DNA of 64,000 bases from assembly GCA_963662465.1 (NCBI GenBank), contig OY759599.1, forward strand, positions 5,696,001 to 5,760,000. Reading direction: 5' to 3'. This document shows, piece after piece, positions 12,810 through 30,451 of this stretch (positions are counted from its first letter, which is position 1; the number at the start of each line of letters is the position of its first letter). The DNA is from Desulfatiglandales bacterium (GTDB lineage Bacteria > Desulfobacterota > DSM-4660 > Desulfatiglandales > Desulfatiglandaceae). The notes below the pieces were generated by a model. That model saw only the letters and a list, made by a program, of their open reading frames with translations, made no database searches and was not told where the DNA came from. Made by a program: the position numbers and the translations under genes.

Positions 12810-12999
12810 GGCGGGGATTTTCTCCCAGTGGGTTTTGTGGGAACCATTTTGCCTCGTCTGAATTTCTAAAACCGTGACGGCTTACTTTCAGATTATTTAT
12901 GCTTTTATGCTCAAAAAGGGAAAGAAAAAGTTGTGAAATTCATAAAACATTTTCCGTAAGCATTCAGGACCTGCCCCCTTAACCGACTCAGAATTCAGA

Positions 13000-13028
13000 T
13001 TGACAACACACCAGCGAAAACATACGCT
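13000..13028 (+). promoter_or_regulatory. Putative sigma70 promoter of mscS-family gene
   Basis: TTGACA (13000-13005), 17-nt spacer, TACGCT (13023-13028). Confidence 0.5.
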
Positions 13029-13099
13029 CATGTACATGCTTTTTCTGGAAGATATCCGGGAGGGGTATGTGTAAAAGCGGAGATACCCTGGAGTAAAGA

Positions 13100-14248
13100 A
13101 TGGACCAATGGAAAACATTCTGGGCCATTGTTGTGGATGTGTGGGAACATGGTCTTTACGGCATCGATATCGGACGGATTACCGTGGCCGTCTTCATTGT
13201 TCTCGGATTTCTAATCATTCGGCGTTTGTTTTCCCGAATTGTCGTTCAGAGGATCAGTCTGCTCACTCAAAAGACATCGACGCCTTTGGATGACAAGGCC
13301 CTGGCGGTTCTTCAAAAGCCTGCCGGTTTCATCCCTGTTGTGCTGGGGGTCTATTTTGCAACGGACTATCTCAATCTTTCGGGGGACCTGGAAATCTTTG
13401 CGGACCGGTCGATCCGTTCCCTCATCGTGTTTGTCATCTTCTGGAGCCTGGTCAGACTGCTCCAACCCCTGTCGGTATTGTTGCGGGGCCTGGAAAAGAT
13501 TTTATCCACGCCCATGGTGGATTGGCTCATCAAGACCGTCAACATTGCCTTCATCTTCATCGGCGGCGCCACAATTCTGGAGATCTGGGGAATCAGGATC
13601 GGTCCCATCATCGCGGGCTTCGGGCTCTTCGGGGTGGCCGTGGCGCTGGGGGCGCAGGATCTTTTCAAGAACCTCATCTCGGGAATCCTCGTCATCGGGG
13701 AGAAGCGGTTCCATCCCGGGGATTGGATTCGGGTTGACGGCGTGGTGGAGGGAACCGTGGAAACCATCGGGTTTCGGTCCACCGTGGTGCGCCGATTCGA
13801 CAAGGCCCCGGTCTTCGTGCCCAATTCCAAACTGGCGGACAATTCAGCCATCAATTTCTCCGCCATGACCCACCGGCGAATTTATTGGGTCATCGGGGTG
13901 GAATATCGAACCACCATCGACCAGCTCCGAACCATCCGGGACCAAATCGAAGCTTATATCCTTGAATCCGAAGCATTCGCCCATCCCCCCGAAGTTCCCA
14001 CCTTCGTTCGCATCGACCGTTTCGCAGATTCCGCCATCAACATCATGCTCTACTGCTTTACTCACACTACGGTCTGGGGAGAGTGGCTCGAACAGAAGGA
14101 ACAGCTTGCCTACCGGGTCAAGGAAATCGTCGAAGGCGCCGGGACGGGATTTGCCTTCCCCAGCCAATCCGTGTACGTGGAAGCGCTTCCGAACGACGGG
14201 CCTGAGGTCTTTGTGCCACCCGAAGAGATCAAGAAGGTTTTTTCATAG
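13100..14248 (+). CDS. MscS-family mechanosensitive channel (YnaI-like)
   Basis: GVAVALGAQDLFKNLISG, GTVETIGFRST, VPNSKL and FAFPSQ; several N-terminal TM helices. Confidence 0.9.
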   Translation: MDQWKTFWAIVVDVWEHGLYGIDIGRITVAVFIVLGFLIIRRLFSRIVVQRISLLTQKTSTPLDDKALAVLQKPAGFIPVVLGVYFATDYLNLSGDLEIFADRSIRSLIVFVIFWSLVRLLQPLSVLLRGLEKILSTPMVDWLIKTVNIAFIFIGGATILEIWGIRIGPIIAGFGLFGVAVALGAQDLFKNLISGILVIGEKRFHPGDWIRVDGVVEGTVETIGFRSTVVRRFDKAPVFVPNSKLADNSAINFSAMTHRRIYWVIGVEYRTTIDQLRTIRDQIEAYILESEAFAHPPEVPTFVRIDRFADSAINIMLYCFTHTTVWGEWLEQKEQLAYRVKEIVEGAGTGFAFPSQSVYVEALPNDGPEVFVPPEEIKKVFS

Positions 14249-14345
14249 CGTTATAACTCAGCACCAGATAAGACATTTTCGCGAAAAGGGCTCTATCTTC
14301 AACAATCGCTGAACCCATACGACCGGACAGGCGTGATGCCCTTTC

Positions 14346-15317
14346 TTATGCAAACACCTGTAAATCCGCAAAACACTTGAGCCCACAGAGGGACCGAGTG
14401 TTTTTCACCGCGGCAATAACCGCCCTTTCCATGACCCGCGCCGCCAGAAAACCCACCACGCTGAGGTCTGCCAAAATGGTCCCGGTTGACATGGCAAAGA
14501 TGGTGTCGCCGTCATACATGGTGTGGGCCGGTCGAATGCTGCGAGCATAACCGTTTTGCGCCATGGAGGCCAGCTTGGTGGCTTCCGTTTTGGTGAATCG
14601 GGCGTTGGTGGCAATCACCCCAATGGTGGTATTGCCGCTGAAAACATTCTTTGGGTTGGAAAATGCCTTGAGCATAATGGCTTCCGTGTCCTCGATGGTT
14701 TGCAGGTCTTCCGACAGAGGACCAGCCAACCGCTCACCCGTTTCAGGGTCTATGACATGCCCCAAGCAGTTCACCGCAACGAGGGCGCCCACCTTCAGCG
14801 TTCCCTCCTGAAGGGCATAACTTCCCAGGCCCCCCTTCATGGCCCGCGCCATCCCATGAATTTTTCCCACGCAGGCACCGGCACCGGCCCCCACATTGCC
14901 CTGGTTCAACTGGCGGGTTTCGGCGTTTATACAGGCCTGGTATCCCATTTCCTTGCCGGGCCGAATTCTGTGATCCCCTAAGGCCAAGTCAAACAGTGCG
15001 GCCCCGCACACAACGGGCACCCGGGTCACCTGCACGTCAAAACCGATCTCCCTTTCCTCCAGGTACTGCATGACACCGGCAGCCGCGTCAAGACCGAAGG
15101 CGCTTCCCCCGGCCAGAAGAACGGCGTGCGCCTGCTGCACCAGATTGACCGGGTTCAACAGATCCGTCTCCCGGGTTCCCGGAGCCCCACCCCGCACATC
15201 CACACCCACGGCAGCGCCCTCTTTGCTGATCACGACGGTAACGCCGGTGGGACCCGTCAGGTTCTGGGCATGACCCACTTGCAGGCCTTCAATTTTTGTG
15301 AATTGGATTTCTTTCAT
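14346..15317 (-). CDS. P1/S58 family peptidase (DmpA-like)
   Basis: VGHAQ...TGVTV, DVRGGAPGTRETDLL, GGSAFGL, NTTIGVIAT and PAHTMYDGDTIF. Start placed at ATG 15317; the track extension overlaps the divergent promoter. Confidence 0.88.
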   Translation of the reverse strand: MKEIQFTKIEGLQVGHAQNLTGPTGVTVVISKEGAAVGVDVRGGAPGTRETDLLNPVNLVQQAHAVLLAGGSAFGLDAAAGVMQYLEEREIGFDVQVTRVPVVCGAALFDLALGDHRIRPGKEMGYQACINAETRQLNQGNVGAGAGACVGKIHGMARAMKGGLGSYALQEGTLKVGALVAVNCLGHVIDPETGERLAGPLSEDLQTIEDTEAIMLKAFSNPKNVFSGNTTIGVIATNARFTKTEATKLASMAQNGYARSIRPAHTMYDGDTIFAMSTGTILADLSVVGFLAARVMERAVIAAVKNTRSLCGLKCFADLQVFA

Positions 15318-15403
15318 GGCTGTTGGATATATCATGCCGAGAGCCTGTTGATCAAGAGAATTGCCCTCACTTAGGGTTGCCCTTGTGACATTTCGGCTCA
15401 CTG

Positions 15404-15412
15404 TGCTACAAT
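15404..15412 (+). promoter_or_regulatory. Putative extended -10 promoter of the AsmA/DUF1318/CHAT operon
   Basis: TGcTACAAT at 15404-15412, with GTGACA about 16 nt upstream of the -10 box. Confidence 0.45.
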
Positions 15413-15430
15413 GCTTCCAAAAACGACAGG

Positions 15431-18400
15431 GTGCTTATGTTTCATCGAATCCTCAAATGGGTATTGTGGCTGACGGGCCTGCTGCTCACGATGCTGATCC
15501 TCGTGGCGGCAGGACTCTTTTTTACGCCGAACATGGTTTCCACGGACTGGTTTCGCCACCAGTTTGAAACCCGGGCCTCCAATGCACTTAAGCGGCAGGT
15601 CACCGTCAAGGAACTTCAATGGACCTGGAAAGAGGGGATCAAGATAGAAGGGCTTGAAGCGATCGATGCCCCCGAATATGCCCAAGCGCCCATCCTGTCC
15701 ATTGACTATATCCTTTTTTCATTTGATTTCCAACCGACCCGCAAACGCCTGTTCATCGATCTGGAAGTGGATGGCCTGAGGGCACATCTCATTCGAGAAA
15801 AAGACGGTCGCACCAACCTGGCGGCATGGCTGTCCCAGCTTAAACAGCCTCGGGAAACCACGGAACCCGCCCACAACGAACCAAGTAAAAAGAAGCCAAC
15901 CCCCTTTATCCTGCCCGGAGATCTTGAAGCGAAAGTCCAATTGAGCCATGCCCATATCCGGGTGGATGATCGGATGGAAAACCGGTCCCTCCATATTCAG
16001 GATGGGACGTTCAAGCTGGAAATCCCTTCGCTCCTTTCAAAACCCGTGACCCTTGTCCTCAGTTCCCGGCAGGAGATAGATGGAAAGATACTGCCGCCCC
16101 TGGCATTGACCGTTCATGTGAATCAACTGGTGAATGAAACCCATACCCTAAATCCGCAAACCGCCATAATTCAAGTCAACGGTGAATTTCCAGGGCTCAA
16201 GGTGGCCGTAAAAGGTTCACTGGCGCAAAGAGGCCTGGAAGGCAAGGTGGCGATTGATTTCATTCCCCTGGTAAAAACGGTACAGGCCTTTTTGCCGAAT
16301 ATCATTCCTCAACTTTCCGGCCGGGTTTTGCTTCAGGCAAAGGCCCGGTCTGAAAAGGAGAATGCCATCGCTTTTGACATGGTTCTTTCCGGCGAGGACA
16401 TCCTGGCCGCAGGCGGACCATTGAAAGAGAAACAGGTGGGCCCCCTTTCCTTCAATATCAGCCAGAAGGGAAGCGCCGACCTCGATGATAAAGCAGTAAC
16501 CCTTGCCGGCGGTGAAATCCGGTTCATGGAACACTGCGGTCTATTTTGGGAAGGCCGCATAAAAATGGAGGAGAAAGCAGGCGCGGATGTGAACCTGACC
16601 CTGCGCAGGGTGAATTTCGATTTAAATGAAATTCAACGCCTGGCCAAAAGGTTCATCCCCAAAGACATTCATGTGACGGGGTTAAACAATGCAGGTCGCC
16701 CCGATTTTGCTATCAATGAAATTCACCTGGTCGGCATGCTGCCTAAAGGAGAGGCACGGTTGTCCATAAAAGATCTGGACGTGAACATCTCAAGTCTGGA
16801 TCTGGCGCTTTCGGAAAGAACGCTGAAAGTCAAGGATTTGACGCTTCAAATTCCGGAAACGACGGTTCAACTAAAAAAACTGTTTCCCCAGGTACTGGAA
16901 ATGCGCGCTGAACTGGGCGTAAAAAAGGTTGGCCTATCGGGAAAACAATCCTTTTTCCTCGAAGATGGCTTGACCCTGAAAGGGCATATGAAAGAGGTAC
17001 GGCTCAACCAGCGCAATCCTCTCATGCTGGATGTGGGGGGGCTGGAAGCGGACATTCAATCGGGAGACCTTCTAACGCTTCACCTGATGGGCGCGGCTGT
17101 GGATTCCGGCATAAAAGAATTTCAAATGGAGGGGCGCCTTGGGGTAGATCTCAAGCAAGTCATGGATCTGACTCCCGCCGCCTTGAAGCCGAAAGGGGAC
17201 TTCACCGGCCGCGTGGAAACGGAATGGCGCCTTCAAGGTCGACGGCCGGACGCAACAGAACTGGCAGGATTAACCGACAACGGACTCCCCCTTGAAAAAC
17301 GGCTGCAACAGATGGCCTTTCTGGAAAAACTGAATCTCAAAACACAGTTTATCAATATGGGGATAACACTCCCCCTGAAATCCGGAGAAACCCTGTCGGT
17401 CCTGAGTATCCACTCCCCAAGCCCTTTTGAGATCAGTCTCCTTGACGGCATGAAATCGGTCTTATTTGAGGGAAAAATCAACCTTGATAAAATCCAGGCC
17501 CTTCCCGCCCTGGGGAAGCTGAAGCCCCCCCAGTCCGCCGTTTTCTCAGTAAAAGGGGTGGGGCGGGATCTCAACTCCCTGGAGTTGTGGGAAACCTTTA
17601 CCGTGACCCCCCTGGCCATGGAACAGACCCTTGAACTGTCTCTGAACAAACTGAATCGCCTGCTGAGAAAAAAAGAGAAACCGGACCTTACCGCCATTTT
17701 AAAGCTTATGGAAGCGAAAATCCAAGCCGGCGTATCGATCAACTCTGGTCCCGGATTGGCCCCCTTCAGCAAAGGGCTCACCCTTAAAGGGCCTCTAAAG
17801 GGGCGTCTGGAACTGGAATTACGAGGTGGAAAAACAATTTCGGCCCAAACCTTCCTTGAAAGTGAAGGTCTGAACGTAACACTGGGGCCGAAGTTTACCC
17901 TCAACAATTTAAAAACCCATCTTCAACTGGAGAAAACTTACGACCTGGCCTTTGGACCCCCGATCGTTTCACGGGAAAACACAAAAGCCCTCTCCCGAAC
18001 GGTGCTTCAGCCCGGAATCACGTCAAGGCCTGACCTTGGATTCAACAATTCCCTTTCCCAACGGTTGGTGGAGGACCTTCGAGGTCGACTGTCCCGAAAA
18101 CCCTCCCTGTCCTTTGATTCCGCATGGCTTGCATCGGGGCCCTTTCCCATGGAAATCAACAATGCCCAACTGCAGATGCGGCTAAACCCATCCCTCCCTT
18201 CCGTGGACTATTTTCAGATGGATATCATGGGGGGAACCCTGTTGGGGGAACTGGGGATTTATGAGCGCAATGATCTTTATTTCCTCCACATGGACGGGGC
18301 TTTTTCCGGTCTGGATGTAGAGACAAGGCATGTGGAGACAAGGCATGCCTTGTCTCTACGGGGGCGGGATTCCGAGGACCTCCCGAATCAAAAGGCGGGG

Positions 18401-18853
18401 GGTGAAGACACCCGAATTTCGGGCCAGCTGTCCCTGGAAATGCCCATGGACCCCAATACCCGGACCGTGATGAACAACGTGGACGCGGTGTTTCGCCTCA
18501 CCCACATAGGACCCCGAACCCTGGAACGGCTCCTTTATGCCATGGACCCCCATGAAAACAACGAAAGCATTGTAAAACAACGGGCCCTGCTGAGAAAGGG
18601 GACGCCCCGGTGGATCGAGGTGGCCATTCGGCATGGGAATCTGTCGCTGACCGGAGATGTGACGGTGGGCGGTTCAACGATACATCTGCCCCCCATCAAA
18701 CGGTTGAACGTGACGGCCCTTCCCATTCAAAAACGAATTCAAAACCTGGCCAATACCATGGTTCCCCTGGTAAAGGGCCTGAAAATCCTTTCCGCGGACA
18801 CGCTTCGGGTGGATCAGGGCGGCGGCATAGATTTTACGGAGGCATCTCAATGA
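15431..18853 (+). CDS. AsmA/YdbH-like intermembrane bridge protein (putative lipid-transfer protein)
   Basis: Single N-terminal TM anchor followed by an AsmA-like start (FETRASNALKRQVTVKELQWTW...) and ~1100 aa of alternating-hydrophobic beta-strand pattern. Lies directly upstream of a DUF1318 gene, as ydbH does relative to ydbL. The start may be ATG 15437. Confidence 0.72.
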   Translation: MLMFHRILKWVLWLTGLLLTMLILVAAGLFFTPNMVSTDWFRHQFETRASNALKRQVTVKELQWTWKEGIKIEGLEAIDAPEYAQAPILSIDYILFSFDFQPTRKRLFIDLEVDGLRAHLIREKDGRTNLAAWLSQLKQPRETTEPAHNEPSKKKPTPFILPGDLEAKVQLSHAHIRVDDRMENRSLHIQDGTFKLEIPSLLSKPVTLVLSSRQEIDGKILPPLALTVHVNQLVNETHTLNPQTAIIQVNGEFPGLKVAVKGSLAQRGLEGKVAIDFIPLVKTVQAFLPNIIPQLSGRVLLQAKARSEKENAIAFDMVLSGEDILAAGGPLKEKQVGPLSFNISQKGSADLDDKAVTLAGGEIRFMEHCGLFWEGRIKMEEKAGADVNLTLRRVNFDLNEIQRLAKRFIPKDIHVTGLNNAGRPDFAINEIHLVGMLPKGEARLSIKDLDVNISSLDLALSERTLKVKDLTLQIPETTVQLKKLFPQVLEMRAELGVKKVGLSGKQSFFLEDGLTLKGHMKEVRLNQRNPLMLDVGGLEADIQSGDLLTLHLMGAAVDSGIKEFQMEGRLGVDLKQVMDLTPAALKPKGDFTGRVETEWRLQGRRPDATELAGLTDNGLPLEKRLQQMAFLEKLNLKTQFINMGITLPLKSGETLSVLSIHSPSPFEISLLDGMKSVLFEGKINLDKIQALPALGKLKPPQSAVFSVKGVGRDLNSLELWETFTVTPLAMEQTLELSLNKLNRLLRKKEKPDLTAILKLMEAKIQAGVSINSGPGLAPFSKGLTLKGPLKGRLELELRGGKTISAQTFLESEGLNVTLGPKFTLNNLKTHLQLEKTYDLAFGPPIVSRENTKALSRTVLQPGITSRPDLGFNNSLSQRLVEDLRGRLSRKPSLSFDSAWLASGPFPMEINNAQLQMRLNPSLPSVDYFQMDIMGGTLLGELGIYERNDLYFLHMDGAFSGLDVETRHVETRHALSLRGRDSEDLPNQKAGGEDTRISGQLSLEMPMDPNTRTVMNNVDAVFRLTHIGPRTLERLLYAMDPHENNESIVKQRALLRKGTPRWIEVAIRHGNLSLTGDVTVGGSTIHLPPIKRLNVTALPIQKRIQNLANTMVPLVKGLKILSADTLRVDQGGGIDFTEASQ
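18317..18359. repeat. REP palindrome with 15-bp tandem duplication inside the AsmA-like CDS
   Basis: GTAGAGACAAGGCAT-GTGGAGACAAGGCATGCCTTGTCTCTAC. It matches the intergenic REP at 36750-36777 and encodes VETRHVETRHALSL. Confidence 0.88.
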
Positions 18854-19452
18854 AAAAGCGCACATTCTTAAAGGCTCTGTTTCTGATCACAATCCTGTGG
18901 ACCCTGGTCGGCTGTACCCTGGCCAAAGTGGACGTCAATGTGGTCAGCGAGCGAACGGCCCTGGAAAATCAGGTTTTGGGTTCCTACAACGCCCTTTCCG
19001 ATGATGTCCTTCTGGTGGCCTCGGTCAGGGGCGTGGACCCTTCCGGCAAAATCAAAACGCCGCCTCGAAAAAGCCGTGAATATCAAAATGCCGTGGAAGC
19101 CATGGAGACCCTGGCGTTTCATGGGGATGATGTGGACGCCTTTAAGCGCCTGGGGTGGGTGGGGGAAAACAACCTTGGGTTGCTGACCCCCTTTCCCATG
19201 AACAAGGAAAAAGCACCCGATGATCTTCAGGCATTTGCGGCCCGGTATCCCCAGGGGGAGTTCGTCTCGGTGGTGGAGCAGGTGAACCGTGCCCGGGAAG
19301 TGGTCATGATGCGGGTAGTGGAAACCAATGCGGATTTTACCGAAAAAGACCTGCCCCGGATCAAAGGGGTATTTGCCAAACTCAACCGTGAAAATGCGCT
19401 GCCCGGTGAGCGGGTGCAGGAGGAGGACGGGTCGTGGACGATGATGCCTTGA
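18850..19452 (+). CDS. DUF1318 (YdbL-like) lipoprotein
   Basis: ATGA overlap with the upstream stop. MKKRTFLKALFLITILWTLVGC carries a lipobox. DUF1318-like motifs FKRLGWVGENNLGLL, VNRAR and ALPGERVQEEDGSW. Confidence 0.8.
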   Translation: MKKRTFLKALFLITILWTLVGCTLAKVDVNVVSERTALENQVLGSYNALSDDVLLVASVRGVDPSGKIKTPPRKSREYQNAVEAMETLAFHGDDVDAFKRLGWVGENNLGLLTPFPMNKEKAPDDLQAFAARYPQGEFVSVVEQVNRAREVVMMRVVETNADFTEKDLPRIKGVFAKLNRENALPGERVQEEDGSWTMMP

Positions 19453-22400
19453 GGGCGGAGGTCAGAGGTCAGAGGCCAGAAACCAGAGGTCAGAGGACAG
19501 AGGTCAGAGATCCGACTTCCGACCTCCGACTTCTGACTTCCGTCATGGTGGTTATGGCGGTTTTGCTTTCGTGTGCGGGACCCAAAACCGTTGGGCCGGT
19601 TGAAAAAACATCGGAGGCGGTTGATTCGGTGGTTTTTGCCCAAAGGGAGAAAGATCGAAAAGCGCCGCTGCGCCTACCCGTGAACCTGCCCGTTCAAGTG
19701 AGCTTCGAGGCGGATCCCGTGCGGTATGGTGCATTGTCGGGAGACGGAAATACCCTGGCCTATGTTCTGGAGAATCAGAGCGGATCATCCCTTTGGATCC
19801 GACCGAGAGATTTCACCCTTGGGACTCTCCCTCAAAAACGGCTTGAGGGCATGGGTAGAATTTCGGCGCCGGCTTTGTCGCGGGACGGTTCAAGCATCGT
19901 TTTTGTGGCCACGGATCATGATGCCAAGGGCGATATCTTTTTGCTTTCAACCCAAGGGGGATCAGACCCCAAACGACTTACCGGAAGAGACACGGCGGAC
20001 GGGGCGCCTACTTTTTCACCGGACGGCAACCGCATCTATTACCACCGGTTGTTAACGGAAGAAATCTTACCCCACCTGGCCTATATGGATTTGAGCGCCG
20101 GCGCCAAAGGCCCTGAAACCCTTCGAGAGGGGGCCTTTCCTTCCATCTCCCCGGATGGTGAGCGTCTGGCCTTTGTGTCCTTTGAAAAGGATTCCGGCGG
20201 CGACATCCAGGTTCTTGACCTGAAAACCGGGAAAGTGACGCCGGTCACCGCCGGTTCTCCGCAGGATCTGTATCCCACCTGGTCCTTGAATGGAAAATGG
20301 ATCTATTTTTCCCGCTTTGACCTGGATACCAATAAAGACAACGCCGTCATTTGGCGGGCTGCCCCTGATGATGCCGGTCTTTGGGCCTACCCCCTCACAT
20401 CGGAAACCTTTTCCGCCTACCAGCCCATGGCCACGTCATCGGAGTTGCTGTTTCTGTCAAACCGGAACGGCACGGCAAATCTCTGGCGGCTCCCTTCGGG
20501 AGGAGAAATTCCCATCGGCGAAGACGCACCAATCCAGATGGAACGGGCCCGAATCCTGGCCGCCCAAATACCTCAAAAGGATGCCCTGGCCCTATTGGCC
20601 TATTATAAGGTGCTGGAAGACTTCAGTCGGGAGATACACTACGGCGGAAAAACCCTTTATGAGATCGGTAAGCTTTACCAGCGCATGGGGCGAGAGAAGC
20701 AGGCGGTTCAAACCTATGAACGACTGATGAAAGATTTCGGAAACGCCTATCCCGAAAAAGCCCTGGCCGCCATTCGGCTGACGGAGATTCAGGCGGAGAA
20801 TGCCTGGAAAGCGGCGCCCACTGATTTTAAGCGAAAACAGATCCTGTTGAATGCTCAAAATCGCATCCAGGCGCTTTTGAAAACCGGAATCCCTTCACCA
20901 TCGGACACTGATGCTCTGGATTCGGCGCGCATCCGGGCAAGGGGGTTGATGGTTCAAGCCCAATTGCTGGAGGAATTGGACCCAAACCCCGATTCCCTTG
21001 GAAACGCCATTGCGCTTCTGGACCAGGTTGCCGGCATGAAGAATGTGGCATCTGATTTGAGGGCGGAAGCCATATTTCAAAAGGCGCGGATCAACAGCCG
21101 TATGGGGCAGGCCCAGGCGGTAATACCCGCCTACCTTTCCATCGTCACAACATACCCCGATACCCCATGGGCCGACGCCGCGGTAGAGCGGATCATCGAC
21201 AATTTCTTGTCGGATTCTTCTGGAAATACGGTGGAAACCCGGATTCAAGCCCTGGCCCGGCTGGCGGAAACCCATCAAGAATCAGTCCCCAAACTGGCCA
21301 TGGGCGCCTTTAACCGCATGGGAGATGAAGCCTTTGCGGCGGGGGACCGGCAGCAAGCCAAACGATGGTACCGGGAAGTCCTGAACCGGTATGCGATGTC
21401 AACCGGCTCTCCCACAAAAGAGAACCTGCCCCCCACACAGGTGGCAGCAGCCCGGCTGGCCCTGGCTGAAATCCTATACCGGGAAGAGCTCTTCCGCCAA
21501 GCCCTGGATCTCTACGAAACGGAAATGGCCCATCGACCCTATGAAGACCGACTCTATACCCTTGCCCGGGCCGCCTATATCCAAAAATCCCTGGCAGCAG
21601 CCGATTTTCTGTTCAATTTGGGCGAAATTCCGGCGGCCCGCAAACGCTATGGGGATCTCATTCGAGAAAATCCTGACCTTGTTCAGGCCCATCGCGGGTA
21701 TATCAAATGCGCGGCCGCCATGAAACAGATCGACCCTTGTCTGGAACGCTACCGGGCGCAGCTGAAAACAGATCCCGAAAATCCAATCCTCCTCTATGCC
21801 GCGGGCCTCTGCCTCACCTACCGGGAAGGGAAAAAAGCCCATGCCGATGCACGTACGCTCATCACAAAAGCCATTTTGAAACAGGGGCAGACCGCTTACT
21901 TCCACCAGACCCTGGGATACCTCTTCGAGGTATCGGAAACGGTTTATGGTGAACCGGGAGGACTTGAAAAAGCCCTTTTGAGCTATCAGAAGGCCTATTT
22001 TTTAAACAACCCCGAACAAGACCCCCAAAACAGCGCCAACCTGGCCCTCAATCTGGGGAACATCCATTTTCTCCTGGGCCAGTATGGCAGAGCCCTGACA
22101 CGGTACCAGGAGCGGCTTGAATCAAAGGCGCCCTTTGATCATGAGGATACGGAAATCCTCTTTTACCGCCGGTTGGGGGGAGCCGCCTTTCAGATGAATG
22201 ACCCGGCCGTATCCATCGACGCCTACACCCGGGCACTCCAGCTCATCGATGACCGCATCGACCCCGGACGTCCGTCGGAACTCATGGGAAAACTAAATAC
22301 GTTCATTTTCGACCGGATACTGACCCCGGCCTTGAAGCGCTCGAAAAATGCCAAAGATATTGAGGCCATGACCCAACGCCAGCGCCGTATCCATAAAGCG

Positions 22401-25400
22401 TTATTCCATGCCACCGGCCAACCCCATAACGCCCCGCCTGATCCGAGATGGGAATCCTACCGGAAAACCATGGAAACCATCATGGCCGAACAGGAAAAAC
22501 TGATCGGGGACATCGCCCCCCTGATCACCGAAAAAAGGGACGAAACCCCGCAAACGCTTTCTTTCATGCTGACTCGGGCCCGAGACGCCCTTCAATTTCC
22601 GAACCGGATGATTGAACTCAAGGCTGAAATACTGGACCGGCTGGGACTGGCCTGCCAGGAGGCGGGCAAATGGGAAGAAGCGACCGACGCCTTTGAAAAG
22701 GCCTTTCAACTGAACCAGGGCCTGGGCCGGTTAAAGAACCTGGCCGCCAACCGGCGATCCGTGGCCTACAATACCTATATGGCGGCAGGGGATCGATCAG
22801 GAAAGGAAAAAGAGCGTTTGCTCAAAGACGCGCTCAAGCAATTTGAAGAGATGCAAGGCCTGTTGGATCAGTACGGGGTGGTGGACCCGAGCGAAAAAAA
22901 GGCGGGGAGTACATCTCGGGCAGGGGATGGGGAGAGTGCGCTGCTGAAGGTTTCCCTGGATCTGGCCCTGGATAAAACCACCGGTTCCGAGGCTGTTTAC
23001 GGGTTCAGCCCCACCCAGGAAAAACGCCTGGCCCAGGCCTTTATTTCCCGTATTGAAACGGAACTGGGCATGCTGGAAAAGGCCCAAACAGCCATTGATG
23101 GACAACTCCTGCCCTATCACCAGGCAAAGACCGTCAGGGATCAGGATCTCTACGGCGTTTCCCTTCTTTCTCATCGGGACGGGCAGCTGCGGTTTGCACT
23201 GCAGGAACCCAAAAAAGCCTTTTCATCTTTTCAGCGTTCCGCACAACTGGCCTTGAAACTCAAGAACCCGGCGAGCGCCGCCATGAACCTGGAGAACATG
23301 GCTTGGGCCATGGGTAGAATCTCCACCCGGGATCCTGATTATCCATCTCTGAGAGCCGGGCTCGCCACTCTTGATCGAGAGACCATCAGGTTGCTGGAAC
23401 GGGCCCAAGGGGTCCTGGACCCATTGACCCTTCCCCACTATCACAACCGGATGGGGGCTTTGGCGCTGAAACCGGTTTCAATAGACGAAGGGTTGTCCCC
23501 TGAAGGAGCGGCCAGGGACATGATGCTTCTTTCGCGGGCCGGCGCCCATTTTACCCTGGGCCTTACCGCATTGAAAAAAACCGAGGGAAAACGGGGAAAA
23601 TCCGACCGAAAGGCACTGGCACTGGCAGCAGCCCTTCAGTTAAACATGGCCCATGTGGCTCTCGATTTTGATGAAAGAGAAACCGCGAAAGCCCACGCAA
23701 AAAGCGCCCTGGAAATTGCCGGAAGGGGCCTGCTCCCCCAATATGAATGGCGCGCGCTGGTCATCCTGGGGGATCTTACCGCGGCGCTGAAATCCCTTTC
23801 ATCGGCGCCACTGGCAGATGCCGGTTGCGCTCCCGGCGAAATCCGGACCGCCTTTGCCCCTATGGTGCTTTCACTGATTCAAAAGGAAAAGGCGGAAGAC
23901 GCGTTGAATTTGCTTGAGCGGTTATCGGAACTGGAGCGGTTTCACCGCATGGCCCCCATGGTGAGTGCCCAGGTTTCACCTTCGGAACAGGCTCGCCTGC
24001 TAGAGATCTTTCCCCGGCTCATGACCCTTTTGCGCCTCAGGGAACAACTGAAAGGGGCTGAAGAGGAGGAAAAACCCCACCTAGCGGAGCGGATCCGGCA
24101 GGAGCGGACCCTTCTGGATGAAGATTCAGGCAAAAAAGAAAATACGGTTAAATTGCCGGCCCTGCTCACCCGATCGGAAACTCTGCGGGAACAATTGGTG
24201 TTGTTGCTGGGTTTGGCCTGTGAAATTGAGCGGGTGGCAACCCTGGCTGTTGTCAATTCTTCTGAAGAGAGTGATAACCCACAAAAGACGCTATACCGGG
24301 AACTGATGACCCTGTACCCTCAAATATGGAAGGAAATTAAGCGGGTTTCGGCAAGGGAAGGCACCCCCGGCGTGGCGGCCCTTTTCGGCCCGGACCCCGT
24401 GGAGGCCATCGATCTCATGGAAAACCTGCCCAAGGGGGGGCATGCCGTACGGCTCTTTGAAAAAGACTCTTCCGGAAAGGGTTGGACGGTCTTTGTGGTA
24501 ACAGAAGATGATATTTCCGTAGAGACAACGACCTTGTCTCTACAGCCCCCCCCATCCACCCTCCTCATTTACGAAGACCCGTGGGTATTGCCTTCCGGAC
24601 AATGCCCCGTGGCCCTCAGCGCCACCCATCTGGTTCGATCGGTGGCAAATCGAAAACCCTTTAAACGCCGGATGGTGGAACTGGCAGGCCCTTACAAACT
24701 CCCTTCGGATTTTGATGTGACCCTGTTGCCCGCATCAGCGGATCAGGAGGCGATTTCAGAAGCCCTGCCCGGGGCACAGGGGCTTTTGCTGGGCGGTCCT
24801 GTTTATACGGCTAACTCGGTTCCCACAAGACCGGGAGAGGTTCCCGTATACCAGCCGGCCATGGGGCTGGACCAAGGCCGAACCCTTCCCCTGCTAACCC
24901 TCTTCGACCGGCTTTCAGATGTTTCCCTGGCCATGCTCCCCCGGGCTGACGCCGAAGAAACCTACATGTTGGGGCACCTCTTTTCCCTGATGGGGGTTCC
25001 CACCCTGCTGCTGCCCCGCAACCCTTCAAACCCTTCTCCGGTGGTACCCCTTTTTTTTGAAGCCTATGGCAAAAATCCGGTCTACAACGCCCTGATGACG
25101 GCCCTCAAAAAAACAGAAGGTCGGAGGACACTCTGGGTTAACCTGGGGTACTGGGGCATGACCGAGGCGGAGGCCCTGATTCTGGCCGAACGTCGGTTCA
25201 AGGAATATGTTCAAAAGGGCATTTCGGCGTTTAAGAAAAAAGAGCCCGTTTATGCCCTGGTTCTTTTTGAAAAAGCGCTGATGGTGGCCCGGCAGGTTCA
25301 AGTGCTTTCGCGCTATGAACCCCAACTTCTGGTGTATGCCCGTGAAAGCGCCTATGCCGGCGGCCGTTACGAAAGTGCGGTTCAACATGCCCGGGATCTA

Positions 25401-28046
25401 GTCAAATTCTGGGCCCGAAAGAAGCCCGATTCCAAGGATCAGGCGGAGGCCCTGGTGAAACTCGGATTGGTTCTGGCCCGCATAGAACAATACGACCGGT
25501 CTATTGCCGCCCTGGAAGAAGGGACCGAGATCATGGCCAATCTGGAACTGGCGGATTTACAGGTGGCGGCCTTAAATGACCTGGGGGTGGTCCTGGAAAA
25601 CGCCACCCATTACAACCGGGCCCTGACGCAGTTTCAAACCGCGGCGGATCTCAGCCGAAACCCGGACAAAAAGGGGGCACTGGCCCGACAGCACATGCGC
25701 ATGGGTCGGGTTTATGACCTCAGACTGAGCCAATATCCAAAGGCAAAAATCCACTACCTGAAAGCTTGCGCCCTTTATGAAACCCTGAACGACACCGAAA
25801 ACATGGCCCAGGCCCTCCTGGATGCCGGTCGATGTGACCGGCTGCTGGGGAATTTCAAAGAGGCCGAAAACCAGTATGAAAAAGCCCTGGCGCTTCTTGA
25901 CAAAGGAAAAGAAGGGTTGAACGCCGAAAATCAAATCATGGCGGGCATCCTAATGGAACAGACCAATAACCACTGGTTTCAAGCCCGTTACCAGGATGCC
26001 TGGAAGGGGCAACGGCAGGTTCACGAAATGGCCGTGAAAAATCGGTGGACACTGGAAGAGGTCAACAGCCTGAACACCGCCGGTCTGATCTGGTGGACCC
26101 TGGGAAATCACCCTTCGGCCCTGCGCCAATTGGAAGAAGCCCTGGCCCTGGCCAAAACCCTTCACGTCAGAAGAGATGAAGTCGCCGCCACCCTCAACAA
26201 TATGGGGCTGGTATATCGGGACGCAGGCGATTACGAAAAGGCCCTGGCGGCCCTGGAACAGGCCCTTGCCATCGACCGCAACATCAACTCCAAATGGGCC
26301 ATTGCCTATGATCTTAAGAACCTGGGGTTAACCCGACTGGCCATGGGAGAAGCGGAAAAAGCCCTTCCCCTGTTTCAGGAAGCACTGGAACTCGCCCGAC
26401 AAATCGGAAACCGCATTAATCAGGCCAAGATCCTGGTGGCATACGGCGAGGCCCTGATGACCCTGGATCGGTCTGAAGAGGCCAACGCCCGGTTCACTCA
26501 AGCCCTTGATCTTTCCCGCCAAATGGCCCTTCGCGAAGTGGAGTGGCGGGCCCTTTTCGGGTTGGGCCAACTTCAGCTCAAAGAGGGAAAGAAAGCCGAA
26601 GCCAGGGTGTTGCTGGAATCCGCCGTGAAAGTGATTGAAGGCATGCGGGCCGAGATCAAGCTGGATCAGCTGAAGGATGGGTTTATCAATAATAAAATGG
26701 CCGTCTATGAAACCCTGGTGGGTCTGTTGGTGGATATGGGGCATAATTCAGAGGCGTTTTACGTTGCGGAACGCTCCAGGGCCCGGAACCTCATCGATCT
26801 TTTGGGCAACCAGCGGCTCACCCTCCATGGGGCCGTCAATCAGGATCGCTATGATACGGAAAAGCGTCTCAAAACTCAGATGGCCGAGTATGAAACCCTG
26901 ATGGCCCAGGCCGCGGACGCAAATGAAAAAGCCGTTTATCAAAAGGCATTGGATCAAACCCGGGACAAGCACCGGGATCTCATGCTGGAAATTCAGCTCA
27001 AAAACCCCGAACTGGCTTCCATCCTGTCGGTGGATCCCCTGACCCTTTCACAGGTGCAAAAGTTCCTGAAACCGGAAACCGCCATCCTGGCCTACTATGT
27101 TCTTCCCGATGAAATACTCTGCTGGTTCATCACCCGCGACGGGATGGAACTTTTTAAAACCCCTCTGGGCCGCAAAACCCTGGCCCAAAAGGTTCTGGAC
27201 TATCGGCGCACCCTTCAAAACCTGGAGCCTCCCGAGGCCGAGGCCGGGGAACTCTACACATGGCTGCTTGCCCCCTTGAAAGACCGGTTGAAAACCGTCA
27301 AAACCATTGGGGTCGTGCCCCACCATATCCTTCATCATCTATCCTTTGCCACCCTGTTTGACGGAAAACAATACCTGGTGGACCGTTTTCCCCTGTTCTC
27401 CATCCCCAGCGCAAGCGTGCTTCGCCATACCCAGCAGACCCTGCCGCCGGAGAAAAACACAAAGGTTCTGGCCGTGGGCAACCCGGATCTAAACAATCCG
27501 GCCCTCGCCCTTCCCTTTGCGGAAAAAGAGGTGTCTACCATCGGGTGGAACTTCCCCCATGTAACCGTACTCACGGGAAATAAGGCGACGGAGGGGTGGG
27601 TGGTCCGCAACATATCGGATTTCGGCATCATTCACCTGGCTTCTCATGGGACGTTCGATCCCGTCAACCCGCTTTTTTCCGCCATCAAACTGGCGCAAGA
27701 CGGTCAGGACGACGGCGATCTTCGGGCTTCCGAGGTGTTCGGCCTCGATATCCGGGCAAACCTCGTGATGCTGAGCGCCTGCCAGACGGGCCTGGGCAAA
27801 ATCACCAGCGGCGATGATGTGATCGGCATGAACCGGGCCTTTCTCTATGCAGGCACCAACGCCGTCATGAGCAGCCTGTGGCGGGTGAGCGATATCTCAA
27901 CAGCCCTTCTGGTGAAGCAATTTTACAGGGAATACCAAAACCGGCCCAAGGCCGAAAGCCTGAACAGGGCCATGCGCCATGTGAAAAACCGATACCCCCA
28001 CCCTGGTTACTGGGGGGCCTTCGTGCTGGTGGGGGACTATCGGTGA
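19434..28046 (+). CDS. Giant predicted lipoprotein: PD40/TolB-like beta-propeller + TPR arrays + degenerate CHAT-like domain + TPR + active CHAT (caspase-like) protease
   Basis: GTG start after GGAGGAGG. Lipobox-like VMAVLLSC. PD40 repeats PALSRDG, PTFSPDG, PSISPDG and PTWSLNG. Many TPRs. CHAT motifs AERSRAR, IIHLASHG, LVMLSACQTG, SSLWRVSD and HPGYWGAF. Confidence 0.9.
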   Translation: MDDDALRAEVRGQRPETRGQRTEVRDPTSDLRLLTSVMVVMAVLLSCAGPKTVGPVEKTSEAVDSVVFAQREKDRKAPLRLPVNLPVQVSFEADPVRYGALSGDGNTLAYVLENQSGSSLWIRPRDFTLGTLPQKRLEGMGRISAPALSRDGSSIVFVATDHDAKGDIFLLSTQGGSDPKRLTGRDTADGAPTFSPDGNRIYYHRLLTEEILPHLAYMDLSAGAKGPETLREGAFPSISPDGERLAFVSFEKDSGGDIQVLDLKTGKVTPVTAGSPQDLYPTWSLNGKWIYFSRFDLDTNKDNAVIWRAAPDDAGLWAYPLTSETFSAYQPMATSSELLFLSNRNGTANLWRLPSGGEIPIGEDAPIQMERARILAAQIPQKDALALLAYYKVLEDFSREIHYGGKTLYEIGKLYQRMGREKQAVQTYERLMKDFGNAYPEKALAAIRLTEIQAENAWKAAPTDFKRKQILLNAQNRIQALLKTGIPSPSDTDALDSARIRARGLMVQAQLLEELDPNPDSLGNAIALLDQVAGMKNVASDLRAEAIFQKARINSRMGQAQAVIPAYLSIVTTYPDTPWADAAVERIIDNFLSDSSGNTVETRIQALARLAETHQESVPKLAMGAFNRMGDEAFAAGDRQQAKRWYREVLNRYAMSTGSPTKENLPPTQVAAARLALAEILYREELFRQALDLYETEMAHRPYEDRLYTLARAAYIQKSLAAADFLFNLGEIPAARKRYGDLIRENPDLVQAHRGYIKCAAAMKQIDPCLERYRAQLKTDPENPILLYAAGLCLTYREGKKAHADARTLITKAILKQGQTAYFHQTLGYLFEVSETVYGEPGGLEKALLSYQKAYFLNNPEQDPQNSANLALNLGNIHFLLGQYGRALTRYQERLESKAPFDHEDTEILFYRRLGGAAFQMNDPAVSIDAYTRALQLIDDRIDPGRPSELMGKLNTFIFDRILTPALKRSKNAKDIEAMTQRQRRIHKALFHATGQPHNAPPDPRWESYRKTMETIMAEQEKLIGDIAPLITEKRDETPQTLSFMLTRARDALQFPNRMIELKAEILDRLGLACQEAGKWEEATDAFEKAFQLNQGLGRLKNLAANRRSVAYNTYMAAGDRSGKEKERLLKDALKQFEEMQGLLDQYGVVDPSEKKAGSTSRAGDGESALLKVSLDLALDKTTGSEAVYGFSPTQEKRLAQAFISRIETELGMLEKAQTAIDGQLLPYHQAKTVRDQDLYGVSLLSHRDGQLRFALQEPKKAFSSFQRSAQLALKLKNPASAAMNLENMAWAMGRISTRDPDYPSLRAGLATLDRETIRLLERAQGVLDPLTLPHYHNRMGALALKPVSIDEGLSPEGAARDMMLLSRAGAHFTLGLTALKKTEGKRGKSDRKALALAAALQLNMAHVALDFDERETAKAHAKSALEIAGRGLLPQYEWRALVILGDLTAALKSLSSAPLADAGCAPGEIRTAFAPMVLSLIQKEKAEDALNLLERLSELERFHRMAPMVSAQVSPSEQARLLEIFPRLMTLLRLREQLKGAEEEEKPHLAERIRQERTLLDEDSGKKENTVKLPALLTRSETLREQLVLLLGLACEIERVATLAVVNSSEESDNPQKTLYRELMTLYPQIWKEIKRVSAREGTPGVAALFGPDPVEAIDLMENLPKGGHAVRLFEKDSSGKGWTVFVVTEDDISVETTTLSLQPPPSTLLIYEDPWVLPSGQCPVALSATHLVRSVANRKPFKRRMVELAGPYKLPSDFDVTLLPASADQEAISEALPGAQGLLLGGPVYTANSVPTRPGEVPVYQPAMGLDQGRTLPLLTLFDRLSDVSLAMLPRADAEETYMLGHLFSLMGVPTLLLPRNPSNPSPVVPLFFEAYGKNPVYNALMTALKKTEGRRTLWVNLGYWGMTEAEALILAERRFKEYVQKGISAFKKKEPVYALVLFEKALMVARQVQVLSRYEPQLLVYARESAYAGGRYESAVQHARDLVKFWARKKPDSKDQAEALVKLGLVLARIEQYDRSIAALEEGTEIMANLELADLQVAALNDLGVVLENATHYNRALTQFQTAADLSRNPDKKGALARQHMRMGRVYDLRLSQYPKAKIHYLKACALYETLNDTENMAQALLDAGRCDRLLGNFKEAENQYEKALALLDKGKEGLNAENQIMAGILMEQTNNHWFQARYQDAWKGQRQVHEMAVKNRWTLEEVNSLNTAGLIWWTLGNHPSALRQLEEALALAKTLHVRRDEVAATLNNMGLVYRDAGDYEKALAALEQALAIDRNINSKWAIAYDLKNLGLTRLAMGEAEKALPLFQEALELARQIGNRINQAKILVAYGEALMTLDRSEEANARFTQALDLSRQMALREVEWRALFGLGQLQLKEGKKAEARVLLESAVKVIEGMRAEIKLDQLKDGFINNKMAVYETLVGLLVDMGHNSEAFYVAERSRARNLIDLLGNQRLTLHGAVNQDRYDTEKRLKTQMAEYETLMAQAADANEKAVYQKALDQTRDKHRDLMLEIQLKNPELASILSVDPLTLSQVQKFLKPETAILAYYVLPDEILCWFITRDGMELFKTPLGRKTLAQKVLDYRRTLQNLEPPEAEAGELYTWLLAPLKDRLKTVKTIGVVPHHILHHLSFATLFDGKQYLVDRFPLFSIPSASVLRHTQQTLPPEKNTKVLAVGNPDLNNPALALPFAEKEVSTIGWNFPHVTVLTGNKATEGWVVRNISDFGIIHLASHGTFDPVNPLFSAIKLAQDGQDDGDLRASEVFGLDIRANLVMLSACQTGLGKITSGDDVIGMNRAFLYAGTNAVMSSLWRVSDISTALLVKQFYREYQNRPKAESLNRAMRHVKNRYPHPGYWGAFVLVGDYR
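19457..19541. repeat. Heptamer tandem repeat followed by its inverted copies
   Basis: About 7 (AGAGGTC)-like units followed by about 4 (TCCGACT/TCCGACC/TCTGACT) units. It can fold into a long hairpin and lies in the 5' end of the CHAT gene. Confidence 0.85.
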
Positions 28047-28229
28047 GGCATTGATCATCGTTCCGGTCACCCGGCAATAAATTGCCGACCTATTTTCTGT
28101 TGCCCCGATCTTTACAACCTGTAAAAAGCGCTGACATGTTTGTTGCGCCCATTTTCTGCTTTCCAGCCTTTTCATTCAAATAAATTCTATTATTACAACA
28201 ACATAAAGATCTCTAACCTCAACTTTCCA

Positions 28230-28245
28230 TTGGCATGAACATTGC
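28230..28245 (+). promoter_or_regulatory. Sigma54 (-24/-12) promoter of the kinase-DASS cluster
   Basis: TTGGCATGAACATTGC: GG and GC are separated by exactly 10 nt. An AT-rich stretch and TGT...ACA dyads lie upstream (~28110-28140). Confidence 0.7.
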
Positions 28246-28283
28246 CTTAAGGGTTTTGGTAACTCACAACGGAAGGGAATGCC

Positions 28284-29978
28284 ATGAAAAAACCAAACTA
28301 CGTAAATTTAAGGCGCTCCATACTGACCAGCATGATTCTCATTCCGCTGGTCACGCTGGTCCTGATTCTGGGTTTCGGCTACTATTTTTTTATCACATCG
28401 CTGGAATCCACCACCATTGAAACAGTTAAACGCATCGTCTCGGACCACCGGCACATGATTGATTCGTTTCTCATGAACCGCAAGGCAAACCTGGACTTTG
28501 TCCTCAGTTCCTACCGGCTTGAAGCGTTGGCGGATCCAAAGGAACTGGAAGAAATTCTTTCCCATTTGCAGAAGGAGTCAAGTGCCTTCGTGGACCTTGG
28601 TGTTTTTAATGCCGACGGAATTCACATCAACTACCAGGGACCCTACAAACTGGCGGGAAGAGATTACGCACAGTCTCCCTGGTTTAAAGAGGTCATGCAA
28701 AAGGGACAATACATCAGCGACGTCTTTCTGGGCTACCGGCGCATACCCCATTTCATCATCGCCCTGAAAAGGGAGGCGGAAGGAAAAATCTGGGTGATTC
28801 GTTCCACCATTGATACACACATTTTTAATGATCTAGTGGAAAAGGTGCGCATTGGAAAAACCGGTGAAGCCTATCTCCTGAACATGGACGGTATCTTCCA
28901 GACCGAGCGTCGTTCAGGCGGCAATCTCATGGAGAAAGATTCTGAAATTATTTCCAAACCACCCCTTCATGACGGTATCAAAGCATCAATCGAAAAAGAT
29001 GCCAAGGGTGATTCCTACCTCTATGCCACCACCTGGCTCAAGGAAAAAAACTGGTTGCTGGTGGTCCGACAGGCCAAGGAAGATGCGTTTAAAGCTCTTT
29101 ACACCGCCAGTTACGTGATAGCCCTCATTACGATTATCGGCGGCGCCGCCATTATCGGTCTTGCCCTGATCCTGACCACCCGCATTATCAGGCGCATGGA
29201 ATGGATGGATGAGGAAAAAGAACAGCTGAACGGGCAATTGATCCGGGCCAGCCGGTTAGCGGAACTGGGGGAGATGGCCACCGGCTTTGCCCATGAAATC
29301 AACAACCCCCTCCAAATCATGAAAAGCGAAAAAGCCCTCGTAGACGTTCTGCTGGAGGAGGTGAAGGAAAAATGCGAACCGGCGTCTTCACCTACCCTTT
29401 CGGAGCTGGAAGATTCCATTGGCCAGATCGATCTTCAAATCAATCGTTGCGCTCAGATTACCCAGTCCATTTTGAAATTCGGACGTCAGAGCGAACCGGT
29501 TTTTCAAAAGGTGACCTTGCAGGATTTCATTCCGGAAGTGACGTCAATGGTGAAAAATAAAGCCAATGTGCATGGTATTTCCCTGAGCCTCACAATCGAT
29601 GTGGATACGCCTGCCGTCCACGGGGACCCGGGGCAACTTCAGCAGGTCCTGCTGAATTTATACAACAACGCCATGGACGCCATTCTTTCAAGGCATGGGG
29701 TCGAGGGGGGGGAACTGGCGGTGGGCGCCGGCGTCAGGGAAGACGGCAAGGTGGCCATTTTTGTACGGGACAACGGCAGCGGCATCAGTATTGAAAACCG
29801 GAAAAAGATTTTCAGTCCGTTTTTTACCACCAAGCCGGTGGGAAAGGGAACGGGTCTGGGTCTTTCCGTATGTTACGGCATTATTGACAAGATGGGCGGG
29901 TTTATTGAAATGGACAGTGAAAAGGGGGTTGGCACAACCTTCACCATTGTCCTTCCGTCATCAAAAGGGGGGAAGTAA
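28284..29978 (+). CDS. Cache-domain sensor histidine kinase
   Basis: Two TM helices around a periplasmic Cache-like domain. H-box AHEINNPL, N-box [14 protein letters not shown] and [15 protein letters not shown]. Confidence 0.93.
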
Positions 29979-30428
29979 ATGGAAGTCATGAAAATGATGT
30001 TGGTTGACGATGAGGAGCGGTTTCTCTCCACCACGAAGAAACTGCTGTCGAAAAAAGGATTTGAGGTCATAACCGCGGCCAGTGGACCCGAAGCTTTGGA
30101 TATATTGAGAGCGCAAAATATTCATGTGGTCATCCTGGACGTAAAGATGCCGGGGATGGACGGCATCGAAACACTCAAAGCCATCAAACGAACATATCCG
30201 CTGGTTGAAGTGATTATGCTGACGGGACATGCCACCGTGGAATCGGCCGTTGACGGTTTGAAATCAGGGGCCACGGATTACCTGATGAAGCCGACGGATA
30301 TCGGCGATATCATTTCAAAGGCTACGGAAGCGTTTGAAAAACGACAAAGGATTGAAGACCGAATTCGGGTGGCCCAAGCGCGAAAGATCATGAAAACGCC
30401 AAGGGAAATCCTGAGGGAGACCACCTGA
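29979..30428 (+). CDS. Single-domain response regulator (receiver)
   Basis: LVDDE, ILDVKMPGMDG, MLTGHA and DYLMKP. Confidence 0.92.
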   Translation: MEVMKMMLVDDEERFLSTTKKLLSKKGFEVITAASGPEALDILRAQNIHVVILDVKMPGMDGIETLKAIKRTYPLVEVIMLTGHATVESAVDGLKSGATDYLMKPTDIGDIISKATEAFEKRQRIEDRIRVAQARKIMKTPREILRETT

Positions 30429-30451
30429 GTCTTATTTAGGGGGAGGAGCAA

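Follow-up and report, generated by a model that had tools for sequence, protein, structure and literature searches.

What does a giant CHAT-domain protein do when it is encoded together with an AsmA-like protein and a YdbL-like lipoprotein? The question is raised by three genes (A, B, and C; Table 1) in the window, the stretch of 64,000 nucleotides analyzed here. For the regulation of lipid flow through AsmA-like bridges, the E. coli work points, in its accessible sections, only to YdbL levels and general turnover by DegP. The trio provides a specific candidate for such a regulator, together with a predicted interface and a bond that might be cut. If the reading favored below is true, an extracytoplasmic CHAT protease would gain a defined partner, and the locus would place an intermembrane lipid bridge under signal control, with the protease as a switch for outer-membrane lipid supply.

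The earlier note on this DNA had claimed three overlapping genes, and all three open reading frames were confirmed on the forward strand, together with the ATGA overlap of A and B at 18850-18853 and the 19-nt overlap of B and C at 19434-19452. The likelier start of gene A is the ATG at 15437, and the database protein has 1138 residues. The GTG start of C is preceded by GGAGG, and close relatives have retained a corresponding start. A DNA run covers positions 14500-27620 with zero differences; it is probably the source sample and so is not independent. In one metatranscriptome, B and C were covered by short contigs of related sequence (share 0.07), which is no evidence of expression. Rfam gave no match across 14000-29000, and the flanking genes for a peptidase S58, MscS, and a sensor kinase did not recur among the 25 largest neighbor clusters.

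Table 1. Features of the trio locus (positions in the window)
Feature	Position	Strand	Description
Gene A	15431..18853	+	AsmA-superfamily bridge-like protein; N-terminal membrane helix, then nearly unbroken beta-strands; ORF of 1140 aa
Gene B	18850..19452	+	Lipoprotein: YnbE-like strand-helix module, linker, YdbL/DUF1318 domain
Ser58-Val59-Arg60 of B	19021..19029	+	Motif conserved in the linker; possible cut site or pseudo-substrate
Helix of B, residues 83-94	19096..19131	+	Invariant Phe90, Asp93, and Asp94; predicted docking surface for CHAT
Gene C	19434..28046	+	Exported 2870-aa propeller-TPR-pseudoCHAT-TPR-CHAT protein
Signal region of C	19434..19574	+	Ends at Cys47, lipobox-like here (LLSC); lengthened by palindromic repeat element 19451-19544
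PD40/TolB-like propeller of C	19671..20528	+	About residues 80-365
Degenerate internal TPR-end and CHAT copy of C	23661..25163	+	About residues 1410-1910; no catalytic His/Cys
CHAT protease domain of C	27240..28037	+	His2738 (27645-27647), Cys2783 (27780-27782); predicted B-binding surface 2694-2705 and 2820-2853

Searches with B yielded at least 107 confirmed loci in GTDB genomes and 201 in metagenomes, and the best 80 of each were kept. The listed loci include members of Desulfobacteraceae, Desulfobacterales, Deferrisomatales, Nitrospirales, Nitrospinota, and Magnetococcales. The earlier note had made its reading depend on whether the order of AsmA-like, DUF1318, and PD40-TPR-CHAT genes is shared by other genomes, and the order was kept: among the best 80 of at least 107 genome loci, A lies directly upstream of B in 70 of the 74 with room on the contig and C follows B immediately in 74 of 77, while among the best 80 of 201 metagenome loci the counts were 69/69 and 60/62. 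These loci are kin, with duplicates included, and co-occurrence in unbiased genome samples is the stronger evidence. Full-length B and giant C were found in the identical 8 of 301 genomes of the own-phylum sample and the identical 4 of 201 genomes of a second-phylum sample. In the own phylum, both thresholds were placed at a visible gap: B was called at E values of 4e-57 or lower (next match, 7.5e-13), and giant C at more than 2590 residues and at least 787 bits, against at most 546 bits for other CHAT proteins.

Among the five genomes scanned for A, two (G059 and G098) have B and C on separate contigs amid unrelated genes, with A present in both; co-inheritance therefore outlasts synteny. The three genes very probably form one functional unit. 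The B profile matched 339 representatives at E 1e-10, and its Atlas clusters are commonest in Thermodesulfobacteriota, Spirochaetota, and Planctomycetota. The distribution of B and C is patchy (8/301).

Gene A had been described as encoding an inner-membrane-anchored, beta-rich AsmA-like protein, and structure prediction agreed with this description and did not go against the beta-groove fold on which the note had staked its reading. In the model (94 sequences; pLDDT 83), the N-terminal hydrophobic helix is followed by about 60 strands, and the nearly all-beta chain is predicted to form a long curved beta-sheet. The Pfam matches were N-terminal: DUF748 with an E value of 1e-12 and 47.4 bits, below the cut-off of 50, and weak YhdP/AsmA matches, likewise under their cut-offs. 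The top Foldseek match was LPD-3 (9cap; E 1.5e-6, probability 0.99), and an N-terminal fragment of Vps13 matched with probability 1.0. With TM-scores to these bridge-like lipid transfer proteins of only 0.10-0.13 over the query, and with scores for unrelated beta-rich proteins as well, the match is evidence of a long curved sheet and not of belonging to the family. A second structure search returned only ApoB and porin half-barrels. The name YdbH, also used in the earlier note, was not supported: A belongs to the AsmA superfamily, but alignment of its profile with the single E. coli YdbH sequence gave an hhalign probability of 1%, and no YdbH-specific family matched either. A is AsmA-like, and YdbH orthology is not demonstrable.

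Gene B proved to be the DUF1318 lipoprotein that had been proposed. DUF1318 spans residues 94-197, over the Pfam cut-off, and occurs in 81/81 B proteins; the lipidation cysteine, Cys22, is likewise invariant (81/81), with a YdbL part fused behind it in every case. This part matched E. coli YdbL (PDB 28oj) by profile (E 0.01) and by Foldseek (E 3e-4; TM 0.87 over the target). The N-terminal module has a cysteine, a strand, and a helix, arranged as in E. coli YnbE, which the accessible text of bioRxiv 10.64898/2026.03.16.712125 describes as a strand followed by a helix; no sequence homology between this module and E. coli YnbE was detectable. B looks like a YnbE-YdbL fusion, the YnbE part being recognized from architecture and the YdbL part by fold.

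The linker carries a conserved motif, S[VIM]R, which occurs in the region of Ser58-Val59-Arg60 in 81/81 B proteins (2.8 in shuffles). Among the best 80 of 201 metagenome loci it was scored in 75, and the remaining 5 were missed by the anchor of the script. Of 150 distant representatives listed at 50% clustering, 137 span this part of the linker, and 127 of these keep Arg60. The following residue is G, A, S, or T in 120 of these 127, and a variable gapped segment comes next, a pattern compatible with a cut site; the residue is Tyr in 22 of the 81 B proteins. The 10 exceptions lacking the Arg require about 5 losses on a quick, poorly resolved tree of 124 rows, and one of them is a member of the Zixiibacteriota. 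In the model of B, residues 26-59 have a pLDDT below 50, as a disordered linker would, and residues 61-69 form a small hairpin, so the motif could instead be structural. A scan of viral sequences found no match, and a search among longer proteins (up to 2000 residues) matched close kin only.

Related fusions show a different linker. As controls we used the 54 weaker DUF1318 matches of the own-phylum sample, of which 52 yielded a protein and 46 were comparable lipoprotein fusions; 45 of the 46 come from genomes that lack C. The control fusions have no Arg motif at the position of the B linker, and A-x-A-[QEADG] stands just before the YdbL domain in 41/46 (shuffles, 4.3; maximum, 9) versus 1/81 in the B clade. 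The pattern was written after the first 20 controls had been viewed, and it holds in 22 of the 26 later ones. A-x-A is the signal peptidase I motif. Its retention suggests that such fusions are normally split, although the motif may be only a relic of the former signal peptide of YdbL. Large genes lie upstream of the control fusions, and 1 of 8 tested matched AsmA-family models.

Protein C was said to have 2870 residues with PD40, TPR arrays, and a CHAT domain bearing both catalytic residues. Pfam identified PD40, TPR, and CHAT (PF12770; E 5e-61, 207 bits against a cut-off of 24), and the codons of His2738 and Cys2783 lie exactly at 27645 and 27780. The His-Cys dyad is intact in 86/86 complete CHAT domains of the clade, and domain and dyad together make C a candidate protease. 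Against the NCBIfam Csx29 model, C scored 42.8 bits with a cut-off of 300, which places it outside Csx29. When a CHAT profile of C was compared with solved structures, DdvA was the best match (8rot; E 0.0013), and Csx29- and separase-type matches followed at E 0.004 to 0.08; a PDB search with the single CHAT sequence found nothing, and matches to TPR-containing profiles were swamped by TPRs.

The earlier note would have been contradicted by a cytoplasmic C. Among C homologs, a hydrophobic signal core is present in 72/72 scored N-termini, which argues for export. The lipobox-like signal that it had described exists here (LLSC, Cys47) and in close kin, but it is clade-restricted, and only 6/72 homologs match the pattern. 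Judged from these N-termini, export of C looks general and lipidation local. The odd, Arg-rich N-terminus of C stems from the palindromic repeat element, which has 96 blastn hits in the genome. A single internal hydrophobic window, at residues 1588-1607 (Kyte-Doolittle 1.87), falls within a stretch whose homologous counterpart in the C-terminal copy is a helical insertion, and it is therefore not read as a transmembrane helix, in line with the claim that C has no internal one.

Taken whole, the internal module of C aligned with the C-terminal module by hhalign (probability 98.2%, E 3e-14); the CHAT core of the internal copy alone gave no significant alignment. By this comparison C holds a second, apparently dead CHAT copy, with neither His nor Cys at the catalytic positions. 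A comparison of 52 C sequences revealed no conserved S-x-R-G site for self-cleavage.

We then turn to the link of C to the bridge genes, which the earlier note had postulated and which a predicted complex supports. The complex of C 2340-2870 with B 23-200 scored 0.71 (runs of 0.74, 0.70, and 0.71), and the best of three controls scored 0.00. The score mark is reached by 116/157 solved complexes and 2/215 mismatched pairs, counts that serve only as a rough guide here, where our own alignments were used. The runs agreed in at least 57% of contacts, with a partner pLDDT of at least 77. In the prediction, B helix 83-93 and residues 132-137 pack on C 2694-2705 and 2820-2853, beside the active site. 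Two residues of this C surface distinguish the clade, Lys2828 (86/86 versus 2/21 other CHATs) and Trp2705 (83/86 versus 0/21), as do Phe90, Asp93, and Asp94 of B (each 81/81 versus 0, 2, and 2 among the control fusions); kin share residues in any case. On average the predicted interface is no more conserved (0.68) than the domain outside it (0.70), and it contains only 2 of the 17 clade-specific positions. Arg60 of B falls outside the confident interface residues. PDB searches found no comparable complex, the distant matches being free YdbL, DdvA, and Csx29. On the strength of the predicted complex, direct contact between C and B is likely.

The specificity of the CHAT domain was considered next. 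In separase, the Asp that binds the P1 Arg (D2151) corresponds to K670 of a Craspase TPR-CHAT, according to the accessible part of PMC9729208. By an indirect mapping through a weak HMM alignment (E 0.07), this position is Ala2824 of C, where the 86 clade members have A (71), S (13), or G (2). The Arg-binding Asp appears to be replaced by Ala, and the mapping gives no sign of Arg recognition of the separase type. In many clan CD proteases, acidic S1 residues allow cleavage after Arg (PMC4357240, accessible sections), and Glu2697, Glu2699, and Asp2820 of C lie near the mapped S1 position, yet they are general CHAT residues. Craspases are described as not cutting after Arg in the accessible sections of PMC11506125. 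Ala2824 is itself a predicted contact of Phe90 of B, so the acidic helix of B could, speculatively, complete or block the pocket.

Two further members usually lie downstream of C: D, an exported SH3 protein, and E, an M48 peptidase. D follows C in 36/45 genome loci with room (best 80 of at least 107) and in 17/27 metagenome loci with room (best 80 of 201). In this genome the D-E pair is found at G000:C1:5416574-5418060, 300 kb from the trio. D carries S-[IVM]-R in 41/41 proteins, with an S-I-R-G pattern as in the B linker. In G059, whose marker-based completeness is 100%, A, C, and a B with SVR are all present; no SH3 partner was found in it, and no such M48 peptidase at E 1e-10. An R-G-L-type motif also occurs in SH3 relatives, 4/5 of whose genomes have no CHAT match and 3/5 also no peptidase C14. 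The idea that the SH3 R-G motif is a general CHAT site was weakened by those four genomes, and only S-[IVM]-R is clade-specific. The SH3 and M48 members had been missed by the earlier note, as had the fused architecture and linker motif of B and the dead CHAT copy of C.

The closest known arrangement is the YdbH-YnbE-YdbL system of E. coli. In both, an AsmA-superfamily gene is followed by a strand-then-helix module and a YdbL fold (28oj), and proteolytic control of the YdbL subunit, by DegP, has precedent there. The accessible text of PMC11126948 and of bioRxiv 10.64898/2026.03.16.712125 reports that YdbL levels tune bridge formation, that excess YdbL blocks the bridge, and that free YdbL is degraded by DegP in vitro; such a control point is therefore plausible. 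In contrast to E. coli, where YdbL is separate and soluble, the YnbE-like and YdbL parts are here one lipoprotein, A has no detectable homology to YdbH, and a 2870-residue CHAT protease predicted to dock on the YdbL part is co-encoded. We infer that the trio may work like YdbH-YnbE-YdbL; this likeness falls short of establishing membership, and lipid transport is suggested by analogy.

The earlier note had also set C against characterized TPR-CHAT proteases, such as Csx29 and HetF, which it placed in the cytoplasm; this does not hold for all of them, since Myxococcus DdvA has a periplasmic TPR-CHAT (PMC11506125, accessible sections). Like C, DdvA of Myxococcus xanthus is an extracytoplasmic TPR-CHAT protein with a His-Cys dyad. 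However, according to the accessible text of the same paper, DdvA crosses the membrane once and carries its anti-sigma domain in the cytoplasm, and its signal and cleavage are still unproven, whereas the signal-like N-terminus of C leads directly into the propeller, and C contains a second, dead CHAT and lacks a sigma partner. The Craspase Csx29/TPR-CHAT and separase share with C a TPR scaffold and a CHAT domain and, probably, allosteric activation and one specific substrate, but they are cytoplasmic; C has no CRISPR context, and the separase P1-Arg Asp is apparently not kept. The literature covered, to which most subscription papers did not belong, contained no description of the trio combination. 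The A-B-C locus is a real, conserved, undescribed variant. What is new is the B fusion with its near-invariant S-V-R linker, the predicted CHAT-B docking, and the dead CHAT copy; a periplasmic TPR-CHAT was already known from DdvA.

As the best reading of these results, held tentatively and short of an even chance, we propose that C docks on B and cuts after Arg60, thereby gating assembly of the bridge; C may gate the bridge or mature it. A, anchored in the inner membrane, would span the periplasm as a beta-groove, its fold being predicted and its role in lipid transport suggested by the AsmA family. The lipid-anchored strand-helix module of B would cap the bridge at the outer membrane like YnbE, as its architecture suggests, and this cap would be tethered to the chaperone part, whose YdbL fold was recognized. 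The active CHAT of C is predicted to dock on the YdbL-side helix of B, and a cut after Arg60 would free the chaperone from the cap, so that the bridge is licensed or remodeled. The propeller, TPR arrays, and dead CHAT copy may restrain the protease until a signal arrives, and D, with its S-I-R-G pattern, is perhaps a second substrate acting with its M48 partner. The regulated cut at Arg60 would do what the A-x-A site may do constitutively in other fusions. In a wider and rather doubtful form of this proposal, YnbE-YdbL fusions are polyproteins that need splitting, at a constitutive signal-peptidase-type site in most lineages and here at an Arg site cut by an allosterically gated caspase-like protease, with the SH3/M48 branch as a second output. 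Several observations speak against cleavage at Arg60: its position outside the confident interface, the seeming Ala in place of the separase-type Asp, the Tyr after Arg60 in 22/81 B proteins, and the R-G-L SH3 relatives in CHAT-less genomes.

Direct contact of C with B is also part of a reading that we consider somewhat unlikely, in which B is not a substrate but a securin-like inhibitor or cofactor, with Arg60 as a pseudo-substrate or the acidic helix completing the pocket. The state of the bridge would then control C as a protease whose target is the SH3 protein, A, or some outside protein, and C would be only a scaffold in some lineages. The B helix is indeed predicted on the helices flanking the active site, Ala2824 included, and C has a dead internal CHAT copy; moreover, the accessible sections of the cited papers report that the gingipain prodomain puts an inhibitory Arg into S1 (PMC4357240) and propose that the CHAT site of DdvA is completed in trans (PMC11506125). 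This reading leaves the signal-peptidase-like site at the same linker of related fusions unexplained, however, and the small residue after the Arg with the variable segment beyond suits a cut site. It is improbable that, conversely, the bridge serves C, with A and B carrying or displaying C, lipidated or not, at the outer membrane or on the surface of the cell. The predicted C-B binding and the lipobox on C here and in close kin would fit, and an AsmA-like protein is reported to aid surface transport of lipoproteins (PMC12802150, accessible text); yet most C homologs have no lipobox (6/72 match), the predicted contact is at the catalytic domain and not at the N-terminus of C, and no secretion-system genes recur in the neighborhood of the trio loci.

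Two other readings assign a larger role to the downstream genes. C could be a stress or phage sensor in a periplasmic cascade with the SH3 and M48 proteins, which the bridge triggers or which acts on the bridge, in the manner of CHAT defense signaling of the DdvA or CRISPR-linked type. Characterized TPR-CHAT proteins act in defense, the distribution is patchy, and SH3 and M48 genes commonly follow C in the genome loci (the 36/45 given above), but we regard such a cascade as quite improbable: no sigma/anti-sigma, CRISPR/Cas, or effector gene recurs among the neighbors of the trio loci, C has no credible transmembrane helix, and the SH3-M48 pair lies at a distance here and was not found in G059. 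Alternatively, the M48 zinc peptidase, and not CHAT, might cut the Arg-Gly motifs of B and the SH3 protein, with C as an adaptor. SH3-M48 pairs with the R-G-L motif do occur in CHAT-less genomes; this is nevertheless very improbable, as G059 combines B carrying SVR with C in a genome in which no such M48 was found at E 1e-10, and the dyad of C is invariant in 86/86 domains.

Among the weaker DUF1318 matches of the own-phylum sample, we found a second type of YnbE-like/YdbL fusion lipoprotein, and a signal-peptidase-like A-x-A motif was recognized in the sequence inside the linker of 41 of the 46 fusions. It is possible that each is a one-gene polyprotein yielding a lipoprotein and a soluble chaperone. 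Both fusion types, the A-x-A type and that of the module's own DUF1318 lipoprotein, were present in one sampled genome, G161.

Features of the window and of comparison loci (L, relatives or own genome)
Feature	Location	Remark
AsmA-like gene	window 15431-18853	
Palindromic repeat element	window 19451-19544	units of 7/14 nt; in frame within the coding signal region of the CHAT gene
Upstream RecC-like gene, MscS channel, divergent peptidase S58	window 9273-15401	
Downstream sensor kinase, response regulators, transporter, CBS-domain proteins, porin-like gene	window 28284-36645	by sequence appearance
Second-type fusion lipoproteins	L112-L131, L133-L166 (e.g. L112:5935-6504)	widespread
SH3-M48 fusion gene, 3' of the CHAT gene, and separate SH3 and M48 pair	L100:12223-13455 and L102:9430-10837 (G076)	
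Displaced SH3-M48 pair	L092:8575-10061	own genome
Second exported TPR-CHAT (771 aa) and nearby 1310-aa protein	L093:9922-12237 and 15590-19522	own genome
CHASE2 adenylate/guanylate cyclase, SH3 protein with R-G-L motif, M48 peptidase, FadL/PorV-like barrel gene	L167:4700-9585, L168, L170, L172	

Most homologs of the AsmA-like protein have about 1220 residues; the protein itself, at 1140, is some 85 residues shorter, a short form common to a few database relatives, and its match to the LIC_11026 family was weak (E 1e-4), far under the cut-off. The repeat element in the CHAT gene had 96 blastn matches in the genome. In relatives, differing expansions occupy this position.

The SH3 and M48 genes of the Magnetococcales (L074, L083 and L088) were located upstream of the AsmA-like gene, and at L088 the CHAT gene was farther away, on the opposite strand. 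Besides its fusion gene, genome G076 has a separate SH3 and M48 pair elsewhere. The displaced pair of the own genome lies beside two ORFs which we take to resemble Rpn-type transposases; a large protein with Ig-like repeats also adjoins it.

Upstream of the module, the RecC-like gene, the MscS gene and the peptidase S58 gene did not recur alongside the three-gene module. The downstream genes look ordinary and seem unlinked to it.

The cyclase, SH3, M48 and barrel cluster recurs without CHAT; for the cyclase and barrel genes, the comparison with family libraries covered the L167 copies. The 771-aa TPR-CHAT protein is without the Trp and Lys residues predicted to dock the DUF1318 lipoprotein, and the 1310-aa protein nearby looks similar to a two-partner-secretion exoprotein.
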